From positions 454,111 through 518,110 of the forward strand of contig JBAZZB010000001.1 of NCBI GenBank assembly GCA_041659045.1: a stretch of 64,000 bases of DNA. Reading direction: 5' to 3'. A program made the translations under genes and the position numbers. This document shows, piece after piece, positions 6,080-48,623 of the stretch; position 1 is the first letter of the stretch, and each line of letters opens with the position of its first letter. Below the pieces are notes generated by a model. It was not told where the DNA came from. It saw only the letters and a program-made list of their open reading frames with translations, and did not search any database. This DNA is from Patescibacteria group bacterium (GTDB taxonomy: Bacteria; Patescibacteriota; Patescibacteriia; SG8-24; DYFX01).

Positions 6080-6098
6080 AAAATGATGGTCTATACCA

Positions 6099-6437
6099 TC
6101 ATTCTAATGCCCACGGCGATTTCTTGGGAGTGTACAACCAGAAGAGGTCGTCTCCTTCGACCGCGATTTCGATTTTTTCAAGCTCAGAGCCTTCGGGTGC
6201 TCCCCCGGCATCGGGGACGGCGATGCCGGTTTTACAGTCGAACTGGCCGCCGTGCCAGTCACATTCGAGGACTTCTCCGGTACAACGAAGCTTGCCGCCC
6301 ATATGGGTGCAGAAGTTCACGTAGCCGCGAAGACCGTCGCCCGTGTTGACGACGATCAAGTCTTTTCCGATTGCGCGATAGCTTTTGGCGCGGCCAGCGG
6401 CGATCTCTGAAACTTTTCCAAGCGGAATCTTTTGCAT
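6099..6437 (-). CDS. Rieske [2Fe-2S] domain protein
   Basis: CTHMGG...CDWHGGQF is a Rieske CxH...CxxH motif. Start set at the internal ATG 6435-6437, just after the upstream stop at 6439. Confidence 0.55.
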   Translation of the reverse strand: MQKIPLGKVSEIAAGRAKSYRAIGKDLIVVNTGDGLRGYVNFCTHMGGKLRCTGEVLECDWHGGQFDCKTGIAVPDAGGAPEGSELEKIEIAVEGDDLFWLYTPKKSPWALE

Positions 6438-6438
6438 G

Positions 6439-9977: not shown

Positions 9978-10638
9978 GGATCCGGTTATGCATCAACAGA
10001 TGAAGCTCGGCCAGGAGATATTTACCAAAAATAGAAAAACGACCGTCGCGCTCAAACCGTCGAACGGAAACGCGAATCCGAGAACCGTGCATCACGCGAA
10101 ACGTACCAACTTGCCGCGCGCGCTCGACGTAGTCGTGGTCTTCCGCCAACTTGATCGATTCGTCGAAACCGCCGATGCGTTCGTGTAGGCTCTTGCGAGC
10201 GAAAATACAGAACCCGGGCGCATGCGCCAACATGAATTGCGTCGCCATCATGTGCGCGTTGAACACGTTGTGCGAAACGTGATCAATAAACTTTCCGCTC
10301 ATCGCCTTGACAAGACACGTGCCCGCGTCCAGTTCACGACGTTCGAACTGCTCCATCTTCGCGGCGAGCCATTCAACGTCCGGCAAAACGACGTCGGCGT
10401 CGAGAAACAAAAGCACGTCGCCTTTCGCCGCCTCCGCGCCACGATTACGTCCAGGACCAGGCATGCCGCCCTGAATCACGCGCGCGCCGAACCGCTTCGC
10501 GATCTCGCGGGTACGGTCGGTCGAACTGGCATCCGCAACGATAATTTCATACCCGTCAAAGCCTTGGCTTCGAATGGAAGCCAAAAGGCGCGGCAGGTAC
10601 TCTTCTTCGTTGTAGGTCGGGATGATGATGCTCAGCAT
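9913..10638 (-). CDS. Family 2 glycosyltransferase
   Basis: LSIIIPTYNEEEYLPRLL...DADxxLPxxW...ED motifs of GT2. Start set at MLSIIIP. Confidence 0.75.
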   Translation of the reverse strand: MLSIIIPTYNEEEYLPRLLASIRSQGFDGYEIIVADASSTDRTREIAKRFGARVIQGGMPGPGRNRGAEAAKGDVLLFLDADVVLPDVEWLAAKMEQFERRELDAGTCLVKAMSGKFIDHVSHNVFNAHMMATQFMLAHAPGFCIFARKSLHERIGGFDESIKLAEDHDYVERARQVGTFRVMHGSRIRVSVRRFERDGRFSIFGKYLLAELHLLMHNRIRDDRFAYTFGYAKNARAKDRS

Positions 10639-19217: not shown

Positions 19218-20669
19218 CTATTCGACACGTCGCGAGATGTCGTCGATGGCTTTGAGTACGCGCTTCTCGGTTTCACGCACCGAGGCACCACTCTGCAAAT
19301 CATGGAAGGCATCACTCACGTTCCGTCGGCTGGAACGAATGGCCTTTTGCACTTTCAAGCGAAGTCTTCTGACAGAACCGAGGAGATAGAGGATAACCAG
19401 AGACAGTACGGTCGTAGCGACACCGGCGGCAAACGGCACCCAGAAGCCTTGGGGCGCGGTTCGCTCCGTACGCTGCTCGACAACCTTCGGTGCTTCCATC
19501 ACGACCATTGGCGTAACTTTCGGCATCGCAGGCGCCTCAGTCACCGTAAACGGAACCATCGCCTCGCGAGAATGGCCAGCCCGATCAAAAGCTCTGACGG
19601 ACAGCGTGTGCGTGCCTGCCGAAAGTTGCGACACCTCATAGGTTGACGTCGCGGTGCCAAACCATTCAACGGACTGCCCTCCGTCAATGCGCACCTCGTA
19701 TCGGGCAATACCAGAGCCACGATCCGTCGCATCAAACAGGAAACGCGCGGCGTCCGACGGTTGAGCTCTCTGAATTTCGTGAATTTCGAAATGTTCCGGA
19801 TCTTCCGTATCGATCTGAACGCGATAATGCGTTGTCGCACCCCACTCCCCACCTTTTCTAAATTGCGCGTGGAAATACCACACACCGTCCTCCAAATCCT
19901 TCACCGTTCTTGAAGCAATGGCTGGCGTGTAACTTACTGTCGGTGAGGCATTTGGAATAACCCCGACGAGCAAACGCACAGCATCAACGCCGGTCGGCAC
20001 CGACCAGGCAAAAGCCGCATCTCGTGACGCATACCACGCATCAGAATCAGGATGCGTACTGGAAACAATTCTTGGCGCCGGCACACTGTTACCCGTCGGC
20101 ACTTCTGGCGCAGTTGTGCCCACGAGCGTAAAACTCGCGCCGAGGAGTCCGGAGGCAACTTCCGTTCCTTGGCCGTCATTGGCCAATACGGACCCTGTCG
20201 AGAAAGACGCTTTCGCCGTACCTTCAGACTTCACGCGAAAGGAAACGGATAAAAGTTTCCCGCTGGACCCTTGAAAGCCAGGATTCAACACAATACCCTC
20301 GAAACCAATCGTTCCGGCCGTGTTTGAAAAGCTTGGATCTTGAATCCAAAGCCCAAAAACAGAACCACTTTTTGAAAGCGATACGACTTCAAGTTTGTCC
20401 GGTGGAAAGATGATACCTCCTGATGCGGCGTTGACCGCGCGATCCGTGCTCGAGACGTAGACGTTTACTGTAAAGGCGCTGCCGACAGCGTGAGAGCCAG
20501 ACGACGGCGAAAGGTACAGAGACGCCGCCTCGGCAGAGGCTGGCACCGCAACAAAAAACAAAATCGCCACCGCGATAGCTCGCGTTTTTTGAAAAAATGA
20601 GCGATACGTTTTGCCGTGGTTTACGACAAACGTATCAAAAAAACGTCGTCTCAAGTTCATTGCGTTCAA
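19218..20669 (-). CDS. Cohesin-like domain cell-surface protein with C-terminal TM anchor
   Basis: Signal peptide, cohesin-like beta-sandwich segment (LYLSPSSGSHAVGSAFTVNVYVSS...GIIFPPDKLEVVSL), Ig-like middle and a C-terminal hydrophobic helix plus basic tail. Paralog of the next gene. Confidence 0.55.
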   Translation of the reverse strand: MNAMNLRRRFFDTFVVNHGKTYRSFFQKTRAIAVAILFFVAVPASAEAASLYLSPSSGSHAVGSAFTVNVYVSSTDRAVNAASGGIIFPPDKLEVVSLSKSGSVFGLWIQDPSFSNTAGTIGFEGIVLNPGFQGSSGKLLSVSFRVKSEGTAKASFSTGSVLANDGQGTEVASGLLGASFTLVGTTAPEVPTGNSVPAPRIVSSTHPDSDAWYASRDAAFAWSVPTGVDAVRLLVGVIPNASPTVSYTPAIASRTVKDLEDGVWYFHAQFRKGGEWGATTHYRVQIDTEDPEHFEIHEIQRAQPSDAARFLFDATDRGSGIARYEVRIDGGQSVEWFGTATSTYEVSQLSAGTHTLSVRAFDRAGHSREAMVPFTVTEAPAMPKVTPMVVMEAPKVVEQRTERTAPQGFWVPFAAGVATTVLSLVILYLLGSVRRLRLKVQKAIRSSRRNVSDAFHDLQSGASVRETEKRVLKAIDDISRRVE

Positions 20670-21566: not shown

Positions 21567-22619
21567 TTAGCCAGACCAGTGATACGCCATAATACTAAAG
21601 TCGACAAGGTTCACTTTCCCGTCGCCATTCAATTGTTCTTTCTCAACCACTCGGAATTCAGCAGAAAGCTCGCGCTGATACCAATACGCAACGATCGAGA
21701 AGTCGACAAGGTTCACCTTCCCATCGCCGTTTACGTCGCCCTTCACACCAACAACATCAGGCAGCGCCGTCACGTTCTTCGTTCCAACGACGAATCCTAC
21801 AGTTTTTCCGAACGGGCTCGCCTCCTCCTCCAACGCCGACTTTGCTTGCGTACTATGTGATCCGGCTTCAAGCACGGCCGTATTGAGCGTGTACAAATAC
21901 GCGCCCGTGGCATCGGCATTCACGCTGTAAAAAAGTTCGTTCTCGGAATTCACCGCAAGTGTCACTTCACTATTCGGCGCAGTCCGCCCAAAAATAGCAA
22001 TGTTGTCTCCGCGTTTTACCTCGCTTTTATCTGCAGAGATCGTCGGTGCGATAAAAATTCCACTTACTCTCGTTGTGGCGCCATTCGTAATGTAAACCGG
22101 GAAACTAAACAATGCAGAATGCAGGCCGGTCGCATCTTCACCATAAATACCGAAGGCATAATTCCCCGTCGCCAAACCCGTCAGGCTCACCTCAAAACGG
22201 GCGTCTGGACCAGCAATGGTTGAAACGGCAACCTGACCATCCTTTAAGACAACAACCTTGCTCAACGGATATGCCCTGCCTGAAAAGGTTACCTGCGTAA
22301 CGACGGGAACCGTCGTAGCTCCTCCCCCACCCCCACCTGTTGCACCACCGCCCACGCTCCCGCTTGATGTCGTGCAAAGCGATGTATCAAACGAACAAGA
22401 GGGATCGCATGATAGCGTACCTCCGCCGAATCCCTGCGACTGGCACGATTGTCCGTTGAGATCAGTGACGTCGCACTCTTCATCCCACTCGGTAATCGTA
22501 TTCCCGCAGACGGAAATACGGATTCTCGCTGAGATGGTCGAGGCAGAGGTAACTACCGGAAAAACCACCAGCCACACAGCAAAAATAAGCGCGGAAAATC
22601 TCGCCAAGACACGGCTCAT
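21567..22619 (-). CDS. Dockerin-containing secreted protein
   Basis: C-terminal duplicated type-I dockerin calcium-binding segments GDVNGDGKVNLVDFSIVAYWYQ and LNGDGKVNLVDFSIMAYHW. The N-terminal region has a signal peptide, a Cys-rich segment, a poly-Gly linker and Ig-like beta domains. Confidence 0.7.
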   Translation of the reverse strand: MSRVLARFSALIFAVWLVVFPVVTSASTISARIRISVCGNTITEWDEECDVTDLNGQSCQSQGFGGGTLSCDPSCSFDTSLCTTSSGSVGGGATGGGGGGATTVPVVTQVTFSGRAYPLSKVVVLKDGQVAVSTIAGPDARFEVSLTGLATGNYAFGIYGEDATGLHSALFSFPVYITNGATTRVSGIFIAPTISADKSEVKRGDNIAIFGRTAPNSEVTLAVNSENELFYSVNADATGAYLYTLNTAVLEAGSHSTQAKSALEEEASPFGKTVGFVVGTKNVTALPDVVGVKGDVNGDGKVNLVDFSIVAYWYQRELSAEFRVVEKEQLNGDGKVNLVDFSIMAYHWSG

Positions 22620-23867: not shown

Positions 23868-26800
23868 CTAATGCTGTGTCGCAGTGATGACGACGTCGAC
23901 GCTTTGTTGCGTATTGTATGAGGTCGATGTCGGCGTCGAAATATTGAGATCAAAGAGCTGCGCGGCGTCTACGGCGACGTTCGTTACCATCGACGTCTCC
24001 CCCGTCGTCAACGCCGTATAGTTGGTCGGTGCGGTCGTACAGCTCGCCGTGCAGAACGCATGCGCATACTGCTCGCTGCTTGGTGTCGCGCCGAGCGTCC
24101 AGTTAGCCGTGTTCGTTCCGCGAATGGTGAAATCCTCAGCAACGTTTCCGGTATTTGTCGCGCTTTGCGTGTCCCACATACCCGTTGATGTCGAGCGTGT
24201 CTCGCTGGTACCCATGATTCCATAAGCGACCGTGCCATCTCCAACAGTCACCGCGACAATCGTCGCCGGATTGATGGTGATCTGTCCTGATGAGTAGGCG
24301 CTTACGGGAGAGTTTTCACCATCATCGACGACACCGTACACGTAATAGCTTCCTGTCGTGACCCCTGTCGTGTCCCAAGCGCACGTCACACCTGTTCCTT
24401 CAGCGGCGGTGGCACACGGGCCGCTGATCACCGTACCGTCGAGACCGGAGTTATTGGTATCGTAATAGAAAGCCGCCGTCACAACATCATCGGAGTCAGC
24501 CAGGGTATACGTCACGTTGTAGGAATCTCCGACGGTAACGGTGTCGCTTGTGCCATCCGGTTGTGAAACCGAAATCGTTGGCGCAGCGTTGCCTGAAGCG
24601 ACATACGAAAGTTTCACTTTTCCATCAGCGCCGGCACCACCGATCGTACATGTCGATGTCGATGCGGATTCTCCGCCTCCACCTCCACCTCCACCGCTTC
24701 CGCTCGCTGGTGCGTTTCCGTTCGTGGCAATAGCGGACGCGCCATCTCCGCCAATACCTCCGCCCGAGGGGGCCGCCGCTGCCGTTGCTGTCGTCCAGGT
24801 CGTCGCGCCACTCGTACCATTCGCCGCAATGCCGGCGCTTGAACCGCCAGGTCCGCCGTAACCATTCGTGTTGTTGTAACCAACCCCTCCGTCACCGCCG
24901 GATGCGATGTAACTTGGCTCACTCACGCCTCCACTCGACGCACCGCCGCTTCCACCGGCCGGCGGCGTACCCGTTGAGTTTGCGCCGCCCGCGCCGCCTT
25001 TTGCCATCACGGTTGAGGCATCGACAAAATAGCTGTCCTCCCCAGATAATCCAGAAAGACAGGTGCCGCCGAGCCCGCCTCCTCCCGCCACGACGGTGTA
25101 GGTATTTCCAGCAGTGACTGCAACGGTGTTTTTGGAATATCCGCCGCCACCTCCACCACCACCTCCGTCGGAAATAATGCGCTGCTGTCCGCCACCACCA
25201 CCACCGCCGCCCCACACTTCAACATCAACAGACGTCACACCTGTGGGCGCCGTCCATGTGTAGACATAGGTGATTCGTACACGACCAACATAACCGTCTC
25301 CGCCTTTAACAGTGGCGCCTTCGGCCGCGCCGCCGCCGCCGCCGCCAGGACCAATATCCGGAGCCAAACCGTCCGTCGTTCCTGACGTAGCTGTGCCATA
25401 CCCTCCAGGACCACCACCAACGACAGCTACCGCACCAGTCGGTGCCGTGCTCGCATTCGTACCGGCACTCCCCGTACCTGCCGCACTGCCTCCACCTCCA
25501 CCAGCACCCGTCGCGCTGTTCGTACCAGCTCTACCGTTGCCGCCAGTGTAGGTCGTGTCGCCAACACTGGAACCGCCGGCGCCACCTGCGCCACCTGATC
25601 CTCCAGTGCCAGAGCCTCCGCTTCCCACATTTGGATTGCCGCCACTTCCGCCTTTTGCCATTACTGTCGAGGCGTCAATAAAATAGCTGTCTCCGCCAGC
25701 ATTACCGGCGCTTGAGGCGACGCCTGTTCCACCAGCACCAACAACAACGGTGTAGTCATTTCCAGGTGTGACGGAAATATTGGATTTCTTTGCGTAAGCA
25801 CCGCCTCCGCCGCCTCCGCCGCCATCATTCGCGGAGTCATTGTTACCGCCGCCGGCTCCGCCACCACCCCACGCCTCGACGTTCACGGCCGTGACGCCTG
25901 CAGGAGCCGTCCATGTTGCGGAACTCGTATAAACAACCGAACCCGTCGCATACGTATCAACCGTATCCGAAGAATCCGCAATATATGTGATAGCGACTTT
26001 TCCATCAGCGCCTTGACCTCCAATCGAACACGTTGTTGTTGAAAGCGCATCGGCTGCGCCGCCACCGCCGCCGCCAGAACCAAAATTACTCAAAGGCGGA
26101 TCCCCCGGCACACCGTCTGCGTCGCCGCCGTCACCGCCAATACCGCCCCCGTGCGGCGGTTTTGAAGCGTCGTCAATTGCCCATGTTGTGGGTCCATTCG
26201 TACCGTTTGCTGCCACGCCCGCGCTTGAGCCGCCAGGGCCGCCTCTGCCATCAGTAGCATTACTGCCCTTACCTCCGTTACCGCCGGAAAATTTTGTATC
26301 ACCAACGCCGGAAGCTGCCGCGCCACCAGCACCACCAGAACCTGGTGTGCCCGTAGAGTTCGGGCCGCCACTACCACCCTTCGCCATCACGGTCGATGTA
26401 TCGATAAAATAACTGTCGTCTCCAGCTACGCCAGTGATACATGTGCCTCCAAGACCACCAGCACCAACACCGACCGCATACGTGTTACCTGGAGTGACTG
26501 AAATGCTAGTTTTTTTGGAATATCCTCCGCCGCCGCCTCCACCTCCGCCGTCGGAAACAATGCGCTGTTGTCCACCGCCACCTCCGCCTCCGCCCCACAC
26601 TTCAACATCAACAGACGTCACGCCCGTCGGTGCCGTCCAGGTATAGATATAGGTAATGCGTACGCGACCAGGCGCACCGTCGCCACCTTGAGCAGTTGCT
26701 CCTTCGCCACTACCTCCGCCTCCGCCGCCAGGACCAATGTCAGGGGCAAGGCCGTTTCCGGCAACCGTAAATCCGTAGCCACCAGGACCACCACCAACCA

Positions 26801-28145
26801 CCGCAGTCGCGCCGGTCACTGTCGCAGCCGTGCCGTTGTTGCCGGCACTTGTCGTTCCCGCACCGCCACCACCTCCTCCTCCAATACCTGTCGTACTGTT
26901 TCTTCCCGCGCCACCAGTACCGCCCGAATACGTAACATCACCAACACTCGAACCACTGGCTCCTCCTGTTCCAGCAGTGCCGGCATCTCCAGTAGACGCT
27001 CCGCCCCCACCGCCACCCTTCGCCATGACCGTCGAAGAATCGATAAAATAGCTGTCGCCACCGGCGTTCCCGGCGCTTGAAGCCACGCCCGTACCTCCCG
27101 CGCCAACGACAACGGTATAGCCGTTTCCCGGTGTAACGGAGATATTCGATTTCTTCGCATACGCACCACCGCCGCCGCCACCACCACTGTCCGCGGAGGC
27201 TTGTGTGTTACCGCCACCTGCGCCACCAGCGCCCCACGCCTCGACGTTCACGGCCGTAACGCCGGTCGGAGCCGTCCATGTCGTCGAACTCGTATAGACA
27301 ACGGAGCCCGTCGTATATCTTTCTTCATAACCGCCCGTAGGTCGAAAACGAACCGCTCCAAGATCTACAGCGAAATCATCTGTTCCGTTTTTTGTTGCCG
27401 TACCGGCCGTGCCATCAGCATTCTCGACACCTTGCGTGTAATAGCTTCCCGGCGAGTTCAGCACGACGACCTCCGAATGTACTTCGATAATACTTGTTGC
27501 TTCGTACATCTGCACCTGCGTCGTCACGCGCGGAATACCTTCCTCGCAGCACTGTGCGAGATCCAAAAAATCCACGACAAAGACGCGATTTGGCGTTGAG
27601 CCAAACGTCTGATACCGAATCTGCGAACCGTTTGAGGAACTCGCGTACAAGTCGGCCCACACGGCGGCGATCAGCGCATTTGGCGTGGCTGCGTCTGGAA
27701 TCACTTGCGTGTTCGTGGAGCTGCCAGGGGTGTCGCCCGTAAAACTGACAAAGCCGTTGGAACTGATCCAGACCGAATCGTAATCGGTACCGTAAAAGGT
27801 AAATGTGAACGGCAGCGTAATCTCGCTGGAAAATTCGTTATCAAATGTTCCAGACGTATCAAACGCCGCAGTCGCTCCCCCATCAAGCGTGTAGGGATCG
27901 TAGGCGATGGTTGATGATTGATAGAAAATCTCAGCCGAGGCTTTCGCTTCGCGTACGTTTGGAAAAAACGGATTGTGACCGAGCCGCGGCCAATCAGAAA
28001 AAATCCAGCTGGTCATGATTGTCAAAACCAGCAGGAAGCGTGACACCTTGGCGGCCTTCTTACATCCAGACCAAAAAACACGCCTACACCAAGCAGCGCG
28101 GCGCGCGACAGAATCCATGTCGATGCGGATGGTCAACGTGCGCAT
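23868..28145 (-). CDS. Giant (1425 aa) glycine-rich repeat cell-surface protein
   Basis: N-terminal TM/signal and a beta domain with PFTFTFYGTDYDSVWISSNGFVSF. Then four repeats of TWTAPxGVTxVxVExWG(G)n...VTPGNxYxVxVGAGG...SYFIDxSTVMAKGG(G)n, organised as two near-identical roughly 467-aa super-repeats. Then an Ig-like domain and a C-terminal module with an NWTL motif. The exact start is uncertain. Confidence 0.75.
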   Translation of the reverse strand: MRTLTIRIDMDSVARRAAWCRRVFWSGCKKAAKVSRFLLVLTIMTSWIFSDWPRLGHNPFFPNVREAKASAEIFYQSSTIAYDPYTLDGGATAAFDTSGTFDNEFSSEITLPFTFTFYGTDYDSVWISSNGFVSFTGDTPGSSTNTQVIPDAATPNALIAAVWADLYASSSNGSQIRYQTFGSTPNRVFVVDFLDLAQCCEEGIPRVTTQVQMYEATSIIEVHSEVVVLNSPGSYYTQGVENADGTAGTATKNGTDDFAVDLGAVRFRPTGGYEERYTTGSVVYTSSTTWTAPTGVTAVNVEAWGAGGAGGGNTQASADSGGGGGGGAYAKKSNISVTPGNGYTVVVGAGGTGVASSAGNAGGDSYFIDSSTVMAKGGGGGGASTGDAGTAGTGGASGSSVGDVTYSGGTGGAGRNSTTGIGGGGGGGAGTTSAGNNGTAATVTGATAVVGGGPGGYGFTVAGNGLAPDIGPGGGGGGSGEGATAQGGDGAPGRVRITYIYTWTAPTGVTSVDVEVWGGGGGGGGQQRIVSDGGGGGGGGGYSKKTSISVTPGNTYAVGVGAGGLGGTCITGVAGDDSYFIDTSTVMAKGGSGGPNSTGTPGSGGAGGAAASGVGDTKFSGGNGGKGSNATDGRGGPGGSSAGVAANGTNGPTTWAIDDASKPPHGGGIGGDGGDADGVPGDPPLSNFGSGGGGGGAADALSTTTCSIGGQGADGKVAITYIADSSDTVDTYATGSVVYTSSATWTAPAGVTAVNVEAWGGGGAGGGNNDSANDGGGGGGGGAYAKKSNISVTPGNDYTVVVGAGGTGVASSAGNAGGDSYFIDASTVMAKGGSGGNPNVGSGGSGTGGSGGAGGAGGSSVGDTTYTGGNGRAGTNSATGAGGGGGSAAGTGSAGTNASTAPTGAVAVVGGGPGGYGTATSGTTDGLAPDIGPGGGGGGAAEGATVKGGDGYVGRVRITYVYTWTAPTGVTSVDVEVWGGGGGGGGQQRIISDGGGGGGGGGYSKNTVAVTAGNTYTVVAGGGGLGGTCLSGLSGEDSYFVDASTVMAKGGAGGANSTGTPPAGGSGGASSGGVSEPSYIASGGDGGVGYNNTNGYGGPGGSSAGIAANGTSGATTWTTATAAAAPSGGGIGGDGASAIATNGNAPASGSGGGGGGGGESASTSTCTIGGAGADGKVKLSYVASGNAAPTISVSQPDGTSDTVTVGDSYNVTYTLADSDDVVTAAFYYDTNNSGLDGTVISGPCATAAEGTGVTCAWDTTGVTTGSYYVYGVVDDGENSPVSAYSSGQITINPATIVAVTVGDGTVAYGIMGTSETRSTSTGMWDTQSATNTGNVAEDFTIRGTNTANWTLGATPSSEQYAHAFCTASCTTAPTNYTALTTGETSMVTNVAVDAAQLFDLNISTPTSTSYNTQQSVDVVITATQH

Positions 28146-28217: not shown

Positions 28218-28817
28218 TTACTGACGAACGTAAGGTGCCAGCTCAGCCGTCACGATAAAACGCTTAAAGGCCGTACCGAGCGGATAGGAAGTTTGCAGCG
28301 TCAAAGTTTTCTTCACGCCATCGCCTTGGGACAACACGCTGAGGTCCTTCGGGGAAACAACTTTCGTGCCCGTTACGACGTACAAAAACGGCGTACCGGA
28401 AGCATTCGTCACCTCGATTTCTTCACCAACGCGAATCGACATGAGCTTCGCGAACACATCTTTGTATGAACCCGGACTCCACACGTAATCGCTGGAGTGA
28501 CCAAAAAAGTAGGCGTTGCCAACTTGTCCCGGCATCGCCGTTCCCGGAAAATGCACGACACCTTTTTCGAGCGCTTGCTGAAAAGATTTCTCGTTACGCG
28601 CCGCTGGCTCGATGACAGGCGCATCGATTCCGAGTCCAGGGATCGCCAAACGCACCGCCAACGTTGAAGAAGACGAGGCGGCAACCGTTTCAATCATAAG
28701 CGTGGCGGAGTCGGGACGATCTCCGTCAACGCGTGCGCGAATCGATGGCCAAGCCATGATAAACACGGACGCGACAAGCGCGATGAAAGGCAGAAGTATA
28801 TGGGCGTGGCGGCGCAT
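28218..28817 (-). CDS. Sortase-fold protein with Ser in place of the catalytic Cys
   Basis: N-terminal TM. LAIPGLGIDAPVIE, HFPGTAMPGQVGNAYFFGHSS (the His motif) and KRFIVTAEL (Arg motif) align with SrtA. The TLxTC motif reads LTLQTSYP, with codon TCC at 28287-28289. The protein contains no Cys at all. Confidence 0.65.
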   Translation of the reverse strand: MRRHAHILLPFIALVASVFIMAWPSIRARVDGDRPDSATLMIETVAASSSSTLAVRLAIPGLGIDAPVIEPAARNEKSFQQALEKGVVHFPGTAMPGQVGNAYFFGHSSDYVWSPGSYKDVFAKLMSIRVGEEIEVTNASGTPFLYVVTGTKVVSPKDLSVLSQGDGVKKTLTLQTSYPLGTAFKRFIVTAELAPYVRQ

Positions 28818-28858
28818 AAGACGTAAACACGCCGGCAGGTGCCGGCGTGCCTATGATA

Positions 28859-29581
28859 TCAAGAACGTTTACGGAGCGACAGGACGACACCGAACGTCAT
28901 CACGACAAGTGCCATCGGAAGCGAAGCGCCTCCGGTGCGCGGAAGCTCGTCAACCGTGTTCGTGTCTCCACCAGGAGGCGTGGTACCGCCGTCCGGAGGC
29001 GTGAGCGGATTGCAGCCGGGGCTAAGCGGATCGCACGTCGCGACATCAGGAGGCGTGATCGGAGCACAATCGGGGCTTCCAACCGGGCAGCTCGGCGGCG
29101 CCGGAGGTTCACAGCTCGTCATGTTGCAGCCACCAGGCGGCGGGGTCGTCGGACCGTCGCAGCCCTGCGAGCATTCCGGAGTTGCAATCGCAACGTCGTC
29201 ATACGTAACAACGCAGGTTGCGGAACCGTTTTCAGCCAAGGTGCCGGAGCAGCCCGGACCGTAAAAACGAGCGTAGTACGGCTGGTGCGATCCCTGAACA
29301 GCGTAGTTGCCCGGGGATACGGCCATCGTGATACCCGGTGCGCCAAAACCAGCCCACGTCGAGAGGGTGGTCATGCCGTCGCCGTAGGTCATAAGAAAGT
29401 TTGCCGGCAAGGCAATACCTCCGTCATCATTGATGACGTTCGTCACAACGTTGATCGTGGCTTGGCTGTTGCCGCCACCGCCCGGACCGGGGCCGGTCGG
29501 GTTATACGAGGCCGCCTGAACGCGGGCAGCGCTCGTAAGAAGCGCCGTCGCAAAGACAAGCGCGAGAAGTGTTTTTCGCAT
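28859..29581 (-). CDS. Secreted Pro/Gly/Cys-rich protein with C-terminal LPRTG sorting signal
   Basis: Signal peptide MRKTLLALVFATALLTSAARVQA. C-terminus ELPRTGGASLPMALVVMTFGVVLSLRKRS, which is LPXTG plus a hydrophobic stretch plus a basic tail. Confidence 0.65.
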   Translation of the reverse strand: MRKTLLALVFATALLTSAARVQAASYNPTGPGPGGGGNSQATINVVTNVINDDGGIALPANFLMTYGDGMTTLSTWAGFGAPGITMAVSPGNYAVQGSHQPYYARFYGPGCSGTLAENGSATCVVTYDDVAIATPECSQGCDGPTTPPPGGCNMTSCEPPAPPSCPVGSPDCAPITPPDVATCDPLSPGCNPLTPPDGGTTPPGGDTNTVDELPRTGGASLPMALVVMTFGVVLSLRKRS

Positions 29582-29657
29582 AGTTGCGTAAAGAATATGC
29601 GAGGAGGATAGCTAAAAACGGCGCGCACGTCAAGGCAGCTATCACCACCTCTTCTTA

Positions 29658-37781: not shown

Positions 37782-40235
37782 TTAGATAAACCTCAAGCGT
37801 TCGCGAATTTCCGCCTCGACAATCTCACGGTCGCGTCCGTATTTGAGACGCGAGAGCTGCTTGATGGCGGCTGTGATCTTCGTATCGCCTTTTGACAGGC
37901 CAGCCATTGCCATGTTGAAGGGGCGACTTGCCGTGTTGTCGATCAGAATTTTCGCATTGGCCGTATACGCTTCAACGTTCACGAGATCGAACGGTGTGAA
38001 GACCGGTGCAAATTCCTTGCCCAAAAATTCTGCGTCCTCAGTGCCGATACGGAAGGCGACCATCGTACCGACGTTACCAAAGATGGCGTCGCGAATCGTG
38101 GTGTCGCCTTTGGCCGAAATCTGCCCGATATATTGGTGCGCGATAATCAGATCAAGGCCGTACTTACGAGCCTCCGAGAGAATCGTCGCAATCGAGTCGG
38201 TAATAAAGTTCTGGAACTCGTCGATGTAGAGGTAGAAGTCTTTGCGATCCTTGGCGTCCATGTCCGTGCGCGAGAGTGCCGCCATCAAGATCTTGCCGAC
38301 CAAGACCATACCGATCAGGTACGCGTTGATGTCGCCGAGTTTGCCCTTGGAAAGATCGAGCAAGAGAATCTTGCCTTCATCCATCGCTTGGCGAACGTTG
38401 AACGCGCTCTTCTGCTGGCCGATGATCGGGCGAACAATGTCGTTGGTGATGAACGGTGTGAGCTTCGAAGTGATGTACGGCACCATGTTGGCGAGCGACG
38501 CTTCACCGCCGGCCTTCGACGCTTCCTTCAACCAGAAATCTTTCACGACTTGCGTCTTGCATTTCGACAACTTGTAAGCGCGGAAGCGTTCGTCGGAGAG
38601 CACACGCGGAATTTCCATCAAGGTCGAACCGGAAGCCGGATCGTCCATGACAAGAATCATGGCGTTGCGCATATACTGCTCGAACATCGGCCCACCCGTC
38701 GATTTAAGATCGTAGAGCTTGTCGAAAATCTTCAGCATCTCGTTGATGACGAAGGTTTTCTGTTCCGGATATTTTTCGTCGTACTCCAGCAAATTGAGAC
38801 CCATCGGCCGCTCGGTATCGGCCGGCGAGAAATAGATCACATCATCAGCGCGATTCTTCGGCACAAACGACAACGCATCCTGCGCAAAATCTCCGTGCGG
38901 ATCGATCACGCAAACACCTTTGCCAGCTTCAATGTCCTGCTTGACCATCGCCTTCATCATCTCGCTCTTACCAGAACCAGACTTACCGATGATGTACATG
39001 TGGCGACGGCGATCCCCCTGCTTGATGCGTACCGGATGCTCTTGGCCGCGGTACTTCACAACACCCAGAAGAATCCCCTCTTTCGGCAGGTTGGACGGTG
39101 GCGGTGCCTTGCGAGCCGTCAGCCAGCGAATGTTGGGTGTTTCGGTCGAGCTGAGCGGCAGATGCCAGAGACTCGCAAGCTCGTCAGGCGTCAGCACCAT
39201 GCGTCGCTTGTCGTGAAAGATACGCAAAATGAAGTCGCTGACGATGCGGCTTTTTCCTTCGCTGACGCGCTTAAACGCGTTACCGTACTGCGGACTCGAA
39301 AACTGGTTGAACGCACCAATCAAGTTTCCAAGCACGAGTTCGGCGCGTCCTGGCGTCGGCGATGAGGCAACCAAATTCACGTTGGTGTCGAGTCCGAGCT
39401 GGCCGACTTTTTCTTCGATCGACTTCACCATCTGCTCCTCAAGCGGCGACAAACGATATTCTTTGGCTTTTTCACCCGTCTTTTCCTCCTGCGTACCGTG
39501 CTTGATGAGACCTGATCCCTTACGCGCCTGGTCGTACGAGCGGCCTTGCTGCATAAGCGAAGCGATCTTCACCCCCTTCTCACGCCACGTTTTTTTCGCC
39601 GAACGCACAAGAATTTGGATTGCAGCACCATCACCAGTTTCGACTTTCGCGAGCGCATTCGTCAGCGCGTTCAGCGGATCGGTTTCAAGTTTTTTGTAGG
39701 TATGAAGTGGGAAGAAGTTTTCGCGCCCAAACACGAGGTGCGCGCTTGCGATTGTCCCCTTCGGTTGAAACACATTATAGTCGGAAACTTCCTCGATTTG
39801 CGCCAAAGGGTATTGCGCGTGGACTTGCTGTTCGACAAATTCACGAAAACGCTTTGGTGCCGAAATGTAAAACGAAACAAGACCACCTGTCGCCACGATT
39901 TCAAAAGCAATGACATCTCCGCGTCCTGCGAGCCACGCGCGGAGACCCCGCTCTGCCTTCAGGCCGCCAACACTTTTGAAAACACCTTCCGCCACAGCGA
40001 TGATGCCCTGAATTTCCTGGAGCGATTTGTCGTGCTGGCCGCCGTCTTTTTCACCGGATTCTTTCGGCACGGTTATGAGCATGACGACGTTGTCGAAACC
40101 ACGCGCGATTTCAGCTCTGGCCGTCAGGATGCGGCGCACGATTCTGAGCACGATCAAAAACACGAACAGCCCGACCACAAAAGGAACGGCGGGCATGACA
40201 AGCGATACAAGATCGGGAAACTGAAACGGGTTCAT
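37782..40235 (-). CDS. Type IV secretion coupling-protein-like P-loop ATPase (VirD4/TraG/TrwB-like), membrane anchored
   Basis: N-terminal TM helix, Walker A IIGKSGSGKS and motifs VIDPHGDF and YIDEFQNF, typical of T4SS coupling proteins and CPR-type DNA-translocating ATPases. Confidence 0.65.
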   Translation of the reverse strand: MNPFQFPDLVSLVMPAVPFVVGLFVFLIVLRIVRRILTARAEIARGFDNVVMLITVPKESGEKDGGQHDKSLQEIQGIIAVAEGVFKSVGGLKAERGLRAWLAGRGDVIAFEIVATGGLVSFYISAPKRFREFVEQQVHAQYPLAQIEEVSDYNVFQPKGTIASAHLVFGRENFFPLHTYKKLETDPLNALTNALAKVETGDGAAIQILVRSAKKTWREKGVKIASLMQQGRSYDQARKGSGLIKHGTQEEKTGEKAKEYRLSPLEEQMVKSIEEKVGQLGLDTNVNLVASSPTPGRAELVLGNLIGAFNQFSSPQYGNAFKRVSEGKSRIVSDFILRIFHDKRRMVLTPDELASLWHLPLSSTETPNIRWLTARKAPPPSNLPKEGILLGVVKYRGQEHPVRIKQGDRRRHMYIIGKSGSGKSEMMKAMVKQDIEAGKGVCVIDPHGDFAQDALSFVPKNRADDVIYFSPADTERPMGLNLLEYDEKYPEQKTFVINEMLKIFDKLYDLKSTGGPMFEQYMRNAMILVMDDPASGSTLMEIPRVLSDERFRAYKLSKCKTQVVKDFWLKEASKAGGEASLANMVPYITSKLTPFITNDIVRPIIGQQKSAFNVRQAMDEGKILLLDLSKGKLGDINAYLIGMVLVGKILMAALSRTDMDAKDRKDFYLYIDEFQNFITDSIATILSEARKYGLDLIIAHQYIGQISAKGDTTIRDAIFGNVGTMVAFRIGTEDAEFLGKEFAPVFTPFDLVNVEAYTANAKILIDNTASRPFNMAMAGLSKGDTKITAAIKQLSRLKYGRDREIVEAEIRERLRFI

Positions 40236-44065: not shown

Positions 44066-47000
44066 TCATTTTTTGATCAGGTCTTTGAGTTCCTGAAGTT
44101 CCTGACGGAGCTCATCGATCTCTTTCTCCTGCTCGCGCAACTCGCTATCAAGCTCCTTGATGGCGTTGATGCTGATGTAGGTGAAATCGCTCGGATCAAC
44201 CATGTAGATAGCCGTCTTACTGGTATCCGTAGGATTCAGCTTGCGATAATCGGTCCTAACCATGGACGGCGCGATTTTTTGCAACTCCTGCGCGATCACA
44301 CCGACACCCTTATGACCCGCGGGCATTTCACCCAAGCCATTATAGGTGTAGTTCACCGGATTAACCTCGCGAATAACCGAGAGGCCACTGGTGTATGGCG
44401 TAACATCTTTTTTCACGCGACGATCAGACGTCGCCGTCCAGCTGCCGCCACCAGGTTTTGCCGCGCCACCCGAACTGACGTACACACCCCAAGACGTACT
44501 GCCTCCAGAAGCGTGCGCATACACGGCCGTGTTCAACGCCGTGCCGCTCATGGCGTAAAATACGCCGCCGTAGTTTGTAGAGTTAGAGGAGCTCGTCGAT
44601 AAGCCATAGACGCCGTAGTTACCGTACGCAAGATAGACGTTTGATCCTTCAGACTGGTGCGTGAAGTGAGCGCCCGCAATACCTGCAACAGTACTACCTT
44701 CAACACCGTAGGAGTTTGTTCCTTGTCCGTAGATACCTGTCGTACTACCCGTTCCGTACACACCATAGATCGTACCTGTCGATTGAATACCCCAGCCACC
44801 AATCGGCGAAGCGCCGTTGACGCCAAGACTGTTGGTGATTGTCACGCGACCCTGCGCGTAGAGAGCCGTATCAAACGACTGGAAGGCCTGTGCATAGACA
44901 GCTGTGCTACCCGCCGTATTTGCGCCGAAGTAACCACCATACGAGCTACCGGAAGCATTCACACCGATTGAACCGCCGCTTCCCGCAAGCGCCGTACCAC
45001 CAGCGTTCACGACTGCAGCCACGCCAGCGACGGTACCGCGTACCGAAAGCGCCGTATCAAACGAGGAAAAGCCGAGACCTGTGTTGCTAATACCAACATA
45101 GTTGTTGATTTGGCGACCGCGCGCGGCGACAGTATCAAGCGTGTCCACTTCAGCGCCACAATCAACCCATACGCTGTTTTCAAAGCAGCGAAGCTTGTTG
45201 TTGACCGAGTTGTAGTACAGCATGCCGTTCACGCCAGCCGGGTTCGAGCCCATGCTGCCGAGAACGAGTTCGCCACTCACCGTCGTACGGTCAGTCGTCG
45301 CGTTACCAAGCGTCGAGTTGTCAGCAACCCAGAACGTTCCGCCGACCGTCAACGTCGAACCGGGACCGGCGATACCAACGCCTACGCGGTTGTTGGCCGC
45401 ATCGATATACAGGGTGTTCGCGTCAAAGTTCAGGCTGTTCGGCGTCGTGATCGCCGTTCCGGTAATCGTCAGTGTGTCGGCAGCCGCGTTTCCAATCGTC
45501 GTGTTGCCGTTAATCGCGAGGTTCTGCGCAGCAATGACCGTCACACCGTCATCGGTCAATGTCGAGTTTCCGATTGATGAGGCGGTTGTAAACTTCGGAA
45601 TCGCGTTGACAGTACCGCTACCAGTCAGACCAGAAGGAATGCAGTCCCTCCAAGCACCGTTTTCATAGCAGCGGAACTTGTTTGTCGTCGTATTGTAGAA
45701 CATGCGTCCGTTCGTACCTCCAATATCGACTGCGGACAAACCAAGAATCAGCGAAGTACCGTTGCCAATTGTGGCTCCACCAGAGAACGAGGCCGTACCA
45801 GCGACGTGCAACGACGTGAAGTCGCCACCCCAACCCGTGCTCGAACTTCCATAGACACCGGTACCATTGCTGGTGGAGTGTCCGTACACGCCGTAGACGG
45901 GGGAAATACCGTACACGCCCGTGCTCACGCCACTACCCATGATACCCGTCGAACCAGGACCCGAAGCAATGGATGTTATCGCTGTATTGCCGTTGCCGGA
46001 ATTATTAACGGTGATCGTAGGCACCGAAACAGAGTTCGCAGTAAGGACACCGTATACGCGCATGGCGTAGGCCGGGTCCGGGGCGCCGCCAACACCAATC
46101 GTGGCGCCGTCATCCCAAATATTGGAGTTACCAACCGTGTTTCCGTCGGAAGTGAACTTAACAAGTCGGTTGAGCTCACCCACGCCAGCGACGCTTGGCG
46201 GGCAGTTCGTACCGTTCGCGACACAAACCAACTGACCACCTACGGACATCGTACCGGCCGCAACGACGTTACCGTCAGCATCGACGCTGAAGCGGTCAAC
46301 CGACTCAGCCTGCAAAAGGAGAATCTTTCCCGCGGCGAATTGGTCGACGTTACCGTAGATCAGGTTTTCTGCCGGGTTGGTCAGACGGACATCCGGACTA
46401 CCGAACATCGCCATTCCAGCGACATCCACCGTCCCCGCCTCGTCAACGGACAAAACGGTTTCGTTAAGGCCGTTTATCCAGTAGTAGGCGTTTGAGGAGT
46501 TGTCGTTGGTGTCGATGCGGTAGTAGACGGATCCGTCTGTGTAGAGATTGAACGCGTTCTCGCCCGTACCGTAGAGCTCGATACCGCCCACTTGGTTCGC
46601 GAGCGTCATTACGGTTCCACCAAGCGTGTTGTTGAAGGCCGTGGTCGTACTGAACGTCTTGGCTCCGGTAAACGTTTGCGTGTTGTTCAAAAGCGCGACG
46701 TTTGAAGAAAGACGCGCGTCATTCAATGTACCAGTCGTAATGCTGTTCGCGTTGATGTTGCCGACCACAACGCCGTCGATTCCGCCCTGCACGTGGAGCC
46801 TGCCGGGAATGACAATACTGTTCGTAGAAGAAACCGTCATCGAGCTGATGCCGTTCGTGACAAGGTTCATCGTATCGGCCGCACTGCGGTAGATACCCGT
46901 GTTGCTGTCACCGTTGAAGGTAAGCGCCGGGATTGCCGCCGAACCAACCGGAATGAACATCGAACCCGTTTGCAAACCCGCACCGCCGTTGTTGACGATG

Positions 47001-47500
47001 AATCGTTGCACACCACCAGTTGTGATACCAACGTTGTCAGTACCGACCCAATACATACCCGTATTGCTGTCGCCATTGAACGTGTACGACGGAACGGCAG
47101 CAGAGCCGACGGAACCCGAGAGAACACCTTGCGTCGTCAGGTCGCCGGACAGGCCGATCCGGAAACGATCAGCAGCACCCAGTTGGAGCAACAACAAACT
47201 GCCCGCGCTGGAAGTCGCGCCGACATTGCCGTACAGCAAATTCTGACCGGCCGAGTTCAAGACCGGTGTGCTGGCGCCTGCCTGGAAGGTTGCGCCGACT
47301 TTCGCGTCGCCCGTGACGTTGATGCTCGCGTTCTGTGCCGGGCTCGCGATCGGGATGTTCTGAATGACGGCCGGACTGCAGTTTGGAGGCGTACAGGTCG
47401 GGGCGGCGAATTGCGCGTGAGCGGCGCGCGCGCCAAAAGCCAAAGCGACAAAGGCTACGAGCGAAACGAAAATCTTGCGGTCGGTCGTGGCGATGCGCAT
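44066..47500 (-). CDS. Secreted tail-fibre-like protein with C-terminal intramolecular chaperone (peptidase S74) domain and terminal coiled coil
   Basis: Signal peptide at MRIATTDRKIFVSLVAFVALAFGARAAHA (start ATG 47498-47500). Long Gly/Ser/Thr/Asn-rich beta-rich body. A twice-repeated NxxxNKxRC(Y/F)ENxxWxDC motif. C-terminal SDRRVKKDV...GVGVIAQELQKIAPSMV matches the autoproteolytic chaperone domain of phage tail spikes/endosialidases. Ends with a heptad-like REQEKEIDELRQELQELKDLIKK. Confidence 0.7.
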   Translation of the reverse strand: MRIATTDRKIFVSLVAFVALAFGARAAHAQFAAPTCTPPNCSPAVIQNIPIASPAQNASINVTGDAKVGATFQAGASTPVLNSAGQNLLYGNVGATSSAGSLLLLQLGAADRFRIGLSGDLTTQGVLSGSVGSAAVPSYTFNGDSNTGMYWVGTDNVGITTGGVQRFIVNNGGAGLQTGSMFIPVGSAAIPALTFNGDSNTGIYRSAADTMNLVTNGISSMTVSSTNSIVIPGRLHVQGGIDGVVVGNINANSITTGTLNDARLSSNVALLNNTQTFTGAKTFSTTTAFNNTLGGTVMTLANQVGGIELYGTGENAFNLYTDGSVYYRIDTNDNSSNAYYWINGLNETVLSVDEAGTVDVAGMAMFGSPDVRLTNPAENLIYGNVDQFAAGKILLLQAESVDRFSVDADGNVVAAGTMSVGGQLVCVANGTNCPPSVAGVGELNRLVKFTSDGNTVGNSNIWDDGATIGVGGAPDPAYAMRVYGVLTANSVSVPTITVNNSGNGNTAITSIASGPGSTGIMGSGVSTGVYGISPVYGVYGHSTSNGTGVYGSSSTGWGGDFTSLHVAGTASFSGGATIGNGTSLILGLSAVDIGGTNGRMFYNTTTNKFRCYENGAWRDCIPSGLTGSGTVNAIPKFTTASSIGNSTLTDDGVTVIAAQNLAINGNTTIGNAAADTLTITGTAITTPNSLNFDANTLYIDAANNRVGVGIAGPGSTLTVGGTFWVADNSTLGNATTDRTTVSGELVLGSMGSNPAGVNGMLYYNSVNNKLRCFENSVWVDCGAEVDTLDTVAARGRQINNYVGISNTGLGFSSFDTALSVRGTVAGVAAVVNAGGTALAGSGGSIGVNASGSSYGGYFGANTAGSTAVYAQAFQSFDTALYAQGRVTITNSLGVNGASPIGGWGIQSTGTIYGVYGTGSTTGIYGQGTNSYGVEGSTVAGIAGAHFTHQSEGSNVYLAYGNYGVYGLSTSSSNSTNYGGVFYAMSGTALNTAVYAHASGGSTSWGVYVSSGGAAKPGGGSWTATSDRRVKKDVTPYTSGLSVIREVNPVNYTYNGLGEMPAGHKGVGVIAQELQKIAPSMVRTDYRKLNPTDTSKTAIYMVDPSDFTYISINAIKELDSELREQEKEIDELRQELQELKDLIKK

Positions 47501-47561
47501 AAGGCGTAATGGTTGATGAGACCAGTATACCTTTTCCGCTTGCATTCCCCATTGGGGATAA

Positions 47562-48623
47562 CTACTCACCCTCTTCGCGAAGCTCTTCGAGCAGTTGTTT
47601 GGCCTTTTTGGAAAGATGTTTGGGCGTGCGAATACGTACACGGACGAAATGGTCGCCGCGCCCGGATGCCTGAAGTTTATTGATGCCGCGATTCTTCAAA
47701 CGAATCTCCTCACCCGCCTGAACGCCACTTGGGATTTTGATCGTGATCTCTCCGTCGAGCGTTTCGATTTCTTTTTCGGCGCCGAGCGCGGCGTCGGCAA
47801 AACCGATTTCGAGATTCGAGTAGACATCGAAACCGTCGCGTTCGAAGCGCGTGTCGGGCTGAATACGGATATGCAAATACAAATCGCCGTTTTGCGCTCC
47901 GTGCGGACCCGCCTCGCCACCACCTTGCACGCGAATCGTTTCTCCATGATCGATGCCGGCCGGAATTTTGACCGTCATCGACGTCTTCTCGCGCTTCACG
48001 CCCGCACCACTGCACTCCTTGCACTCTTTCTCGGGAACATTGCCGGAGCCACGGCATGCACCACACGTCGCGACGGCTTCAAAGCTGCCGAGAATCGTGC
48101 GCTGCATCTGGCGCACGCGGCCTTGGCCGCCGCACGTTTTGCAGGTGATCATTTTCGAACCTGGCGGAATGCCGGTGCCGGAACAGGCGCCGCACGCGAC
48201 AGGTTTGTAAAGTTCAAGCGTTTTTTCTGTACCGAATGCCGCGTCGCTAAATGAAATCGTTACGTTCACTTCGATATCGCCGCCGCGCGCTTGGCGCCGT
48301 CCACCACGCTGACCGCCGAAGCCAAACATGTCGCCGAACATCTCTCCCAAATCCCCCATGTCAAAATTCGCCCCTTGGCCTCCAAAGCCCTGGCCGCCGA
48401 AACCACCGAAGCCCGGACCGGCGGAACCGAACTGGTCGTACTGGGCGCGTTTCTTGGAATCTCCGAGTACCTGATAGGCCTCGTTGATCTCTTTAAACTT
48501 AGCTTCGTCTCCGCCCTCCTTGTCGGGGTGATGTTTGTGCGCCAAAACACGGAAGGCCTTTTTGATCTCCTCTTCGGAGGCCCCCTTGCTTATTCCTAGG
48601 ATTTGGTAATAGTCTTTAGACAT
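47562..48623 (-). CDS. dnaJ: Molecular chaperone DnaJ
   Basis: J-domain with HPD (KHHPDK), G/F-rich region and four CxxCxGxG zinc-finger repeats. Confidence 0.9.
   Translation of the reverse strand: MSKDYYQILGISKGASEEEIKKAFRVLAHKHHPDKEGGDEAKFKEINEAYQVLGDSKKRAQYDQFGSAGPGFGGFGGQGFGGQGANFDMGDLGEMFGDMFGFGGQRGGRRQARGGDIEVNVTISFSDAAFGTEKTLELYKPVACGACSGTGIPPGSKMITCKTCGGQGRVRQMQRTILGSFEAVATCGACRGSGNVPEKECKECSGAGVKREKTSMTVKIPAGIDHGETIRVQGGGEAGPHGAQNGDLYLHIRIQPDTRFERDGFDVYSNLEIGFADAALGAEKEIETLDGEITIKIPSGVQAGEEIRLKNRGINKLQASGRGDHFVRVRIRTPKHLSKKAKQLLEELREEGE

Follow-up and report, generated by a model that had tools for sequence, protein, structure and literature searches.

Sortases are defined, classified (MEROPS C60) and drug-targeted as cysteine transpeptidases; they are recognized by the 'TLxTC' rule, and their inhibitors are thiol-directed. 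A 64,000-nucleotide stretch of DNA from a Patescibacteria group bacterium (assembly GCA_041659045.1, contig JBAZZB010000001.1, positions 454,111 to 518,110 of the forward strand; hereafter the window) raises the question of what such a protein does once the cysteine is gone. On the minus strand, at 28218..28817, the window encodes a sortase homolog with serine at the nucleophile position, and the immediately upstream gene ends in an LPRTG sorting signal. Comparison with homologs places the gene as a typical member of a previously unremarked Ser-for-Cys sortase clade, which appears to be large, old and strictly conserved, and which is mostly labeled Patescibacteria. We consider it reasonably probable that the protein is an active sortase which uses serine as its nucleophile and is dedicated to adhesin-like proteins with LPRTG, a judgment in which the uncertainty over its acceptor is included.

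A sortase fold without cysteine

The gene and its landmarks are as follows:

28218..28817, minus strand: ATG-started open reading frame (ORF) for a sortase-fold protein of 199 a.a. with no cysteine
28746..28802, minus strand: predicted N-terminal membrane anchor, about residues 6-24 (ILLPFIALVASVFIMAWPS), a hydrophobic stretch in the translation
28488..28499, minus strand: His107-Ser108-Ser109-Asp110 (GHSSD), His107 codon CAC at 28499-28497; aligns with the catalytic His of 4d70 and 8t28
28281..28298, minus strand: L-Q-T-S-Y-P motif, with the Ser177 codon TCC (28289-28287) where TLxTC has cysteine
28260..28262, minus strand: Arg186 (KRFIV), the conserved sortase arginine, codon CGT at 28262-28260; aligns with the Arg of 4d70

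An earlier note on this DNA had described a transmembrane (TM) anchor, the His and Arg motifs and the lack of any cysteine, all of which were borne out by the sequence, by Pfam and by phmmer comparison with solved structures. Its placing of a serine (TCC, 28287-28289, minus strand) at the nucleophile position of TLxTC was likewise upheld, by the sequence and by alignment to 8t28 and 4d70. The protein matches Pfam Sortase PF04203 over profile positions 1-124 of 125 (E-value 1.7e-24, 86.4 bits, cutoff 26.6), and it scores 48.5 with TIGR01076 sortase_fam, above the cutoff of 39.35. In phmmer alignments with solved sortases, 'ltlqtSyplg' falls under 'LTLVTCTPLG' (8t28, class C) and 'MTIVTCT' (4d70, SrtD), 'GNAYFFGH' under 'GNFSIAGH', and 'KRFIV' under 'DRYIV'. 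Because these motifs align to 8t28 and 4d70, Ser177 occupies the cysteine column, and His107 and Arg186 stand at their usual positions. Pfam, phmmer to PDB chains, and a MAFFT/hmmalign alignment with 260 cysteine-bearing sister sequences agree on this column, so that a cysteine column lying elsewhere through profile misalignment was ruled out by three concordant alignments, together with the absence of cysteine anywhere in the protein.

The fold points the same way. An AF2 model built on 40 homologs has a mean predicted local distance difference test (pLDDT) value of 84.3, exceeds 80 around the active-site segments, and opens with a helix (residues 2-30) that leads into a beta-barrel. All 50 matches listed by Foldseek against the PDB are sortases (classes D, C, E, and A), with 4d70 the best (E-value 5.8e-12). 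From the position of the N-terminal anchor, the catalytic domain would lie outside the cytoplasm. The protein falls below the NCBIfam class models: 54.3 bits for class D (cutoff 165), 57.9 for SrtD (140), 47.7 for class E (160), 38.5 for class F (166), and 38.1 for class C (160), while the class A and B models gave no match at E≤0.01. By sequence and fold, the product of 28218..28817 is a member of the sortase superfamily; it has the His and Arg of MEROPS C60 and lacks the catalytic cysteine that defines that family. An hmmsearch of all ORFs of at least 70 a.a. with a combined Ser and Cys profile found no second sortase homolog in the window.

Conservation of the serine and extent of the clade

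Is the serine real, and is it peculiar to this gene? The best 120 homologs from a collection of 5.8 billion proteins, which come from NCBI, JGI, ENA, and Logan assemblies and are 44-93% identical to the query, all have serine in the cysteine column, within the motif L-T-L-Q-T-S-Y-P-L-G-T-A-L; the closest relatives (74-93% identity) read LQTSYP. A HMMER search of 1.84 billion cluster representatives returned 7503 sortase-like proteins at E≤1e-3, and the best 150 of these comprised 112 with serine and 38 with cysteine. Pooled with the best 120 homologs, they amount to 226 Ser and 38 Cys sequences, the first Cys sequences appearing at about 127 bits and below. Serine thus fills the column in 226/226 clade members. 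Across 83 genes of the clade it is encoded by TCC (24), TCG (22), TCT (20), and TCA (17); no AGY codon, which would be a sign of repeated origin, occurs among these 83. Since the third codon position is saturated and the amino acid never changes, the codon spectrum fits one ancient TGY-to-TCY substitution that would have been followed by long purifying selection.

When one genome from each GTDB species was scanned for the pattern, 161 of them encoded a Ser-type relative. The named lineages among them are Patescibacteria, namely Doudnabacteria, Uhrbacteria, Paceibacter, Veblenbacteria, and the Parcubacteria group; some of the 161 bear automated third-party annotation (TPA) labels ('Gammaproteobacteria', 'Saccharibacteria', 'Binatia'), which are unconfirmed. 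The earlier note had treated the substitution as an oddity of a single gene, and that view gave way to a monophyletic family spread over at least 161 species-level genomes. The gene is present in the complete or nearly complete genomes CP129476.1, OY968788.1, JAVHLR010000001.1, JBMOKY010000001.1, and CAYQCK010000001.1. In five members of 336-369 a.a. (P0152, P0169, P0170, P0187, and P0218), the TM anchor is separated from the catalytic domain by an insert with DxDxDG-type (thrombospondin type-3-like) repeats that are putatively calcium-binding.

Besides a Ser-nucleophile sortase and an inactive pseudo-sortase, sequencing or assembly error had been proposed, as TCC is one substitution away from TGC, the codon for cysteine. 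All 226 homologs, which come from independent assemblies (NCBI, JGI, ENA, and Logan), have serine, however, and the query gene has the clade-specific residues Q175, Y178, D110, and Y103 described below, which one miscalled base cannot yield. With serine in 226/226 homologs, all four TCN codons in use, and five positions that co-vary with the nucleophile, the proposal is refuted, and we hold an underlying TGC to be vanishingly improbable.

Active-site positions that change with the nucleophile

Two further profile searches added 222 Cys-type relatives, and 489 sequences were aligned to one profile, of which 471 had good coverage: 211 Ser sequences (210 homologs and the query) and 260 Cys sequences. 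On average, two sequences of the Ser group are 47% identical (minimum 27%), two of the Cys group 50%, and a Ser and a Cys sequence 36% (maximum 49%). For 99.8% of sequences the nearest neighbor is of the same nucleophile type, and in a neighbor-joining tree of 91 Ser and 90 Cys sequences, one branch parts all Ser from all Cys. On this tree and these identities, the Ser sequences appear to be a single clade, with one origin from the single-Cys sortases of the candidate phyla radiation (CPR). The constraint on the clade seems not to be relaxed, because its internal identity (47%) is close to that of the Cys sisters (50%).

The nearest relatives that have the cysteine are single-Cys sortases of Patescibacteria (Saccharimonadales, Berkelbacteria). 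Ser clade and sisters share GHSS, a W-x-PG-x-YK insertion after the His, and P-x-GT after the nucleophile; the sisters read L-[I/M]-T-C-T-P and have Asn, Gly or Tyr at the position of Asp110, whereas the Ser clade reads LQTSYPxGTA and GHSSD. Residues N101, H107, S108, S109, P179, and R186 do not vary among the 210 Ser and 260 Cys sequences, and T176 hardly does (208/210 and 259/260, respectively). Against this shared background, five positions switch with the nucleophile:

Position 175: Gln in 210/210 of the Ser clade; Gln in 0/260 of the Cys sisters (Ile/Met)
Position 110: Asp in 205/210 of the Ser clade; Asp in 6/260 of the Cys sisters (Asn/Gly/Tyr)
Position 178: Tyr/Trp in 210/210 of the Ser clade; Thr in 229/260 of the Cys sisters
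Position 103: Tyr in 195/210 of the Ser clade; Tyr in 0/260 of the Cys sisters (Val/Phe/Ala)
Position 183: Ala in 201/210 of the Ser clade; Ala in 12/260 of the Cys sisters

All five lie 2-6 residues from the catalytic His, Ser, or Arg. Gln175 and Tyr103 probably face the active site, according to beta-strand periodicity, since position 175 precedes the nucleophile by two residues on a strand that they share, and position 103 precedes the His by four. Exactly one cysteine is present in 243/260 of the Cys sisters, and none in 144/210 members of the Ser clade. To judge from these alignments, the active site looks like one that was remodeled around a new nucleophile and then frozen, rather than one that decayed.

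The chief rival to an active enzyme is a binding-only pseudo-sortase, which would keep the fold and the LPRTG groove and perform no chemistry, acting as a receptor, chaperone, or retention factor, or handing its client over to a Cys sortase encoded elsewhere. Binding-only pseudoenzymes commonly retain much of their active-site architecture, so that a preserved pocket is compatible with this role. A dead site should nonetheless tolerate Ala, Gly, or Thr, yet the residue is Ser in 226/226, with all four TCN codons represented; His107 and Arg186 are invariant, five flanking positions changed in concert and were then frozen, and the sequence constraint equals that on the Cys sisters. With the neighborhood evidence given below, these observations make the pseudo-sortase a rather unlikely explanation, albeit one to be taken seriously.

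Linkage to LPRTG proteins

The upstream gene of the window and its sorting signal are located as follows:

28859..29581, minus strand: substrate gene for a secreted protein of 240 a.a. that has a signal peptide, a prealbumin-like domain weakly matching SpaA_2, a stalk rich in Pro and Cys, and a sorting signal at its C-terminus
28862..28945, minus strand: cell-wall sorting signal, with LPRTG codons at 28945-28931; ELPRTG followed by 19 hydrophobic or small residues and an RKRS tail

The gene lies 41 bp upstream of the sortase gene, and its product ends in ...TNTVDELPRTGGASLPMALVVMTFGVVLSLRKRS, which confirms the LPRTG signal (codons 28945-28931) that had been reported for the immediately upstream gene. 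The SpaA_2 match (E-value 0.0031) is under the Pfam cutoff. Read from the translation, the mature part of the protein has no Lys; a pilus-polymerizing sortase was considered for this locus and judged unlikely, as the mature substrate has no Lys for a pilin motif. No other protein with a sorting signal is encoded in the 64-kb window.

The arrangement recurs. Neighborhoods were compared at 81 loci (80 fetched and the window), and upstream co-directional genes were counted at -150 to +400 bp. Orthologous substrate-sortase pairs are present at L001-L003, and in 50/81 loci the immediately upstream co-directional gene encodes a sorting signal (46 LPRTG and 4 LPVTG). The extended consensus is LGAT-x-E-LPRTG (upstream context L-G-A-T/D-T/E-E), and after the motif come about 24 residues that make up the hydrophobic segment and the basic tail. 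The proteins that carry it range from 110 to 1562 a.a. and belong to several families; ten that were scanned have SpaA_2 prealbumin-like, SdrD_B, or DUF11/CLIPPER domains. SpaA_2, SdrD_B, and DUF11 are usual building blocks of the wall-anchored adhesins of Gram-positive bacteria. That the motif is kept across unrelated passenger proteins implies a factor by which the LPRTG signal is still read.

In three representatives of 50%-identity clusters (P0126, P0128, and P0131), substrate and enzyme form one polypeptide in the order passenger-LPRTG-TM-basic-TM-Ser-sortase. Two of the three were confirmed as uninterrupted ORFs on independently sourced contigs, each with a DUF11/CLIPPER passenger, LPRTG, two TM segments, and a Ser-type sortase:

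L085:5001-6554: fusion ORF, NCBI Doudnabacteria JACPKU010000006.1, also seen as L030
L084:3429-6188: fusion ORF

These 'Rosetta-stone' fusions are topologically sound, with passenger and catalytic domain both outside the cell. Their simplest explanation is processing in cis, which speaks against a pseudo-sortase.

Genomic neighborhoods and the possible acceptor

In 6/81 loci (L008, L019, L021, L022, L024, and L053, with the sortase at about position 10000 of each) the Ser-sortase gene stands between murG and murC and runs in their direction, in the dcw cluster order ftsW-murG-[Ser-sortase]-murC-ftsQ. A Pfam check of four of these loci found ftsW upstream (L008, L053) and ftsQ downstream (L022), and phmmer confirmed the adjacency of ftsW, murG, and murC at all six. 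MurG makes lipid II, the canonical sortase acceptor. The position of the gene between murG and murC in six loci therefore suggests a link to lipid II or peptidoglycan. Seven other loci adjoin ruvB and/or queA (both in five cases), which is uninformative for function.

The pseudo-sortase would need chemistry from elsewhere if it handed its client over, and here the neighborhoods give it no help: no Cys sortase was found within 10 kb at the 81 loci or in the 64-kb window, a sample that amounts to a few percent of each genome. When contigs bearing Cys-sister matches (the best 120 of 1349 and the best 120 of 1001) were compared by length with long contigs bearing the Ser enzyme, none was shared, in what is a low-power comparison. 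Second sortases were seen only at L008 and L061, both with strong scores against the combined profile; as the first reads LQTSYP and the second carries GHSSD, both appear to be Ser-type. On the other side, Cys-type sortases are frequent in CPR bacteria, and more than half of the CPR genomes have a sortase family (Meheust et al., 2019, PMC6744442). The Cys sisters of the Ser clade occur in Patescibacteria as well.

Of the Cys-sister loci, the three examined (L081-L083) are close to murA, and L081 is close to mreB as well; none of the three has an adjacent LPxTG gene. One of them, L083, on a 979-kb CPR contig, has two Cys-type sortases 3 kb apart, at 10078-10602 (minus strand) and 6001-6768 (plus strand). 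The pair comprises LTLYTCTPL and a GHSS-type sister, and it adjoins glycosyltransferase and polysaccharide deacetylase genes; sortase paralogy therefore exists in Cys-sister lineages.

A proposed mechanism and its weighing

Taken together, we propose a natural Patescibacteria family of serine-nucleophile sortases, in which Ser177, His107, and Arg186 would form the catalytic set, Asp110 and Gln175 would have been recruited to it, and LPRTG adhesins would be anchored or processed, some of them in cis as fusions with the enzyme. In this full form, we rate the proposal a little better than even. From the comparisons above we infer that the serine catalyzes, what Asp110 and Gln175 do, and which acceptor is used.

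By analogy with sortases, the membrane-anchored extracytoplasmic enzyme would recognize the (E)LPRTG of the surface protein whose gene lies directly upstream. His107 would act as the general base that deprotonates Ser177, and the clade-specific Asp110 could polarize His107 as a candidate third member of the triad. Ser177 would then attack the Thr-Gly bond to form an oxy-ester acyl-enzyme, with Arg186 and a network of Gln175, Tyr178, and Tyr103 serving to position the substrate and stabilize the oxyanion. Finally, an amine, most likely from the peptide stem of lipid II or peptidoglycan, would resolve the acyl-enzyme and leave the adhesin-like protein anchored to the wall.

Several points weigh against this proposal. 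To our knowledge, the cysteine is essential in every characterized sortase, and the C184S form of S. aureus SrtA is regarded as inactive; the first of these points also favors a pseudo-sortase. By its nature, an oxy-ester yields less readily to aminolysis than a thioester does. A canonical Cys sortase elsewhere in genomes with the Ser enzyme might do the chemistry. That Asp110 and Gln175 lie near His107 and Ser177 is presumed only from strand periodicity and sequence position, and about 38% of loci have no adjacent substrate gene. In addition, SrtA C184S has been used as a 'cys-less' backbone (PMC5578623), which again sits well with a binding-only protein.

The chemistry of the ester also brings in a second rival, a serine hydrolase ('sheddase' or maturase) in which water resolves the Ser177 acyl-enzyme and LPRTG proteins are released from their membrane anchor rather than ligated. 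Compared with thioesters, oxy-esters generally favor hydrolysis over aminolysis, and the lack of Lys in the mature window substrate makes pilus-type polymerization unlikely. All of the active-site evidence for a serine sortase applies equally to a hydrolase, and sequence does not separate the two. The murG-[sortase]-murC order in 6 loci, however, points to lipid II or peptidoglycan and argues mildly for transpeptidation, and the substrates have domains typical of wall-anchored adhesins (SpaA_2, SdrD_B, and DUF11). Serine acyl-enzymes do perform wall transpeptidation in penicillin-binding proteins, so that serine-based wall transpeptidation is chemically feasible. We regard a hydrolase as quite improbable, and retain the serine-nucleophile transpeptidase as the preferred account.

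Other features of the window

Around the substrate and sortase genes, the minus strand carries the following:

28824..28853, minus strand: GC-rich RNA hairpin of 13 bp in the gap that separates the substrate stop from the sortase start; minimum free energy -23.7 kcal/mol, z=-3.3 against shuffles
29605..29633, minus strand: promoter-like site TTGACG-17-TATCCT preceding the substrate gene, 9/12 matches, a consensus match only
23868..28145, minus strand: 1425-a.a. glycine-rich repeat protein, Gly_rich_2 PF21722 in 4 stretches (E-value 8.4e-56), 72 bp after the sortase stop

The hairpin, which a terminator scan did not call, may be an attenuator that lowers expression of the enzyme relative to its substrate. 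The close relative L001 has an intergenic gap of 22 bp, too short for an equivalent hairpin to judge from its length. The promoter-like site lies just past a divergent tRNA-Gln. A 254-a.a. Arg-rich ORF on the plus strand (28847-29611), antisense to the LPRTG gene, was rejected as almost certainly spurious, a product of high GC content and not a gene.

The glycine-rich gene is possibly in the same operon as the sortase gene, and no sorting signal was found in its product. Its GC-rich repeats generate many spurious antisense ORFs. Further along the minus strand, a protein encoded at 21567-22619 has a weak cohesin match (E-value 2e-4, 22 bits, just under the cutoff of 24.1), and another, encoded at 19218-20669, has a dockerin domain (Dockerin_1, E-value 1.2e-6, above cutoff). 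Several proteins with no domain match are also encoded on this strand downstream of the sortase. The cohesin and dockerin matches hint at a cohesin-dockerin surface assembly in this minus-strand cluster of a genome whose gene content is CPR-like, and, with the Gly_rich_2 gene, suggest a cluster of surface-assembly genes.

On the same strand, 44066-47641 encodes a 1191-a.a. protein that ends in a Peptidase_S74 intramolecular-chaperone domain (tail-fiber/endosialidase type), and about 4 kb away, 37782-40235 encodes an 817-a.a. VirD4/TraG-like coupling ATPase; the two may be a surface fiber and part of a module resembling a type IV secretion system. The rest of the window is ordinary chromosome, with ackA, PFOR, dnaX, cysS, dnaK/dnaJ/hrcA, yidC, and a P-type ATPase. 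Because cysS is present and the stalk of the substrate has many cysteines, the organism does not avoid cysteine generally.

Significance and comparison with known systems

Full-text literature searches, whose coverage left out most subscription journals, found no description of a Ser-type sortase or pseudo-sortase. Meheust et al. (2019, PMC6744442) say of CPR bacteria only that a sortase family is common in them. Public annotations call members of the Ser clade 'sortase', 'sortase A', or 'class E sortase', and the Cys sisters 'class D sortase', and leave the missing cysteine unflagged. If the preferred account is correct, sortases would for the first time include an enzyme not based on cysteine, protease clan CL would gain an independent switch of nucleophile from Cys to Ser, and a hydroxyl nucleophile would be able to run the sortase scaffold. 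The clade would then supply a natural compensating set (Q175, D110, Y178, Y103, and A183) that could be transplanted into SrtA to probe what a serine nucleophile needs, and an enzyme insensitive to oxidation and thiol reagents, with tight LPRTG specificity, could serve in protein ligation. If the protein instead does no more than bind, no earlier pseudo-sortase family with a client of its own would have been described. The findings also bear on how ultra-small, host-attached Patescibacteria display adhesins.

Compared with the sortases of MEROPS C60/PF04203, the window protein has the same fold (Foldseek E-values of about 1e-11 to SrtD, SrtC, SrtE, and SrtA), an N-terminal anchor, the His and Arg motifs, the TLxT-x-P context, and an adjacent substrate of LPxTG type. 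With its clade, it differs in that the nucleophile is Ser and never Cys, in its clade-specific GHSSD and LQTSYPxGTA motifs, and in having Arg as the X of the substrate motif (LPRTG). With the class C and other dedicated sortases of Gram-positive bacteria the Ser clade shares the coupling of enzyme gene to substrate gene, as well as substrates with SpaA_2/CnaB-like and SdrD_B domains. In contrast to class C enzymes, the window protein misses the class C model (38 bits against 160), its substrate has no Lys for pilin polymerization, and its nucleophile is Ser. A functional analogy, with folds unrelated to that of sortases and no homology claimed, is offered by the D,D-transpeptidases among the penicillin-binding proteins, which use Ser, and the YkuD L,D-transpeptidases, which use Cys. 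In that pair, Ser oxy-ester and Cys thioester acyl-enzymes both support peptidoglycan transpeptidation.

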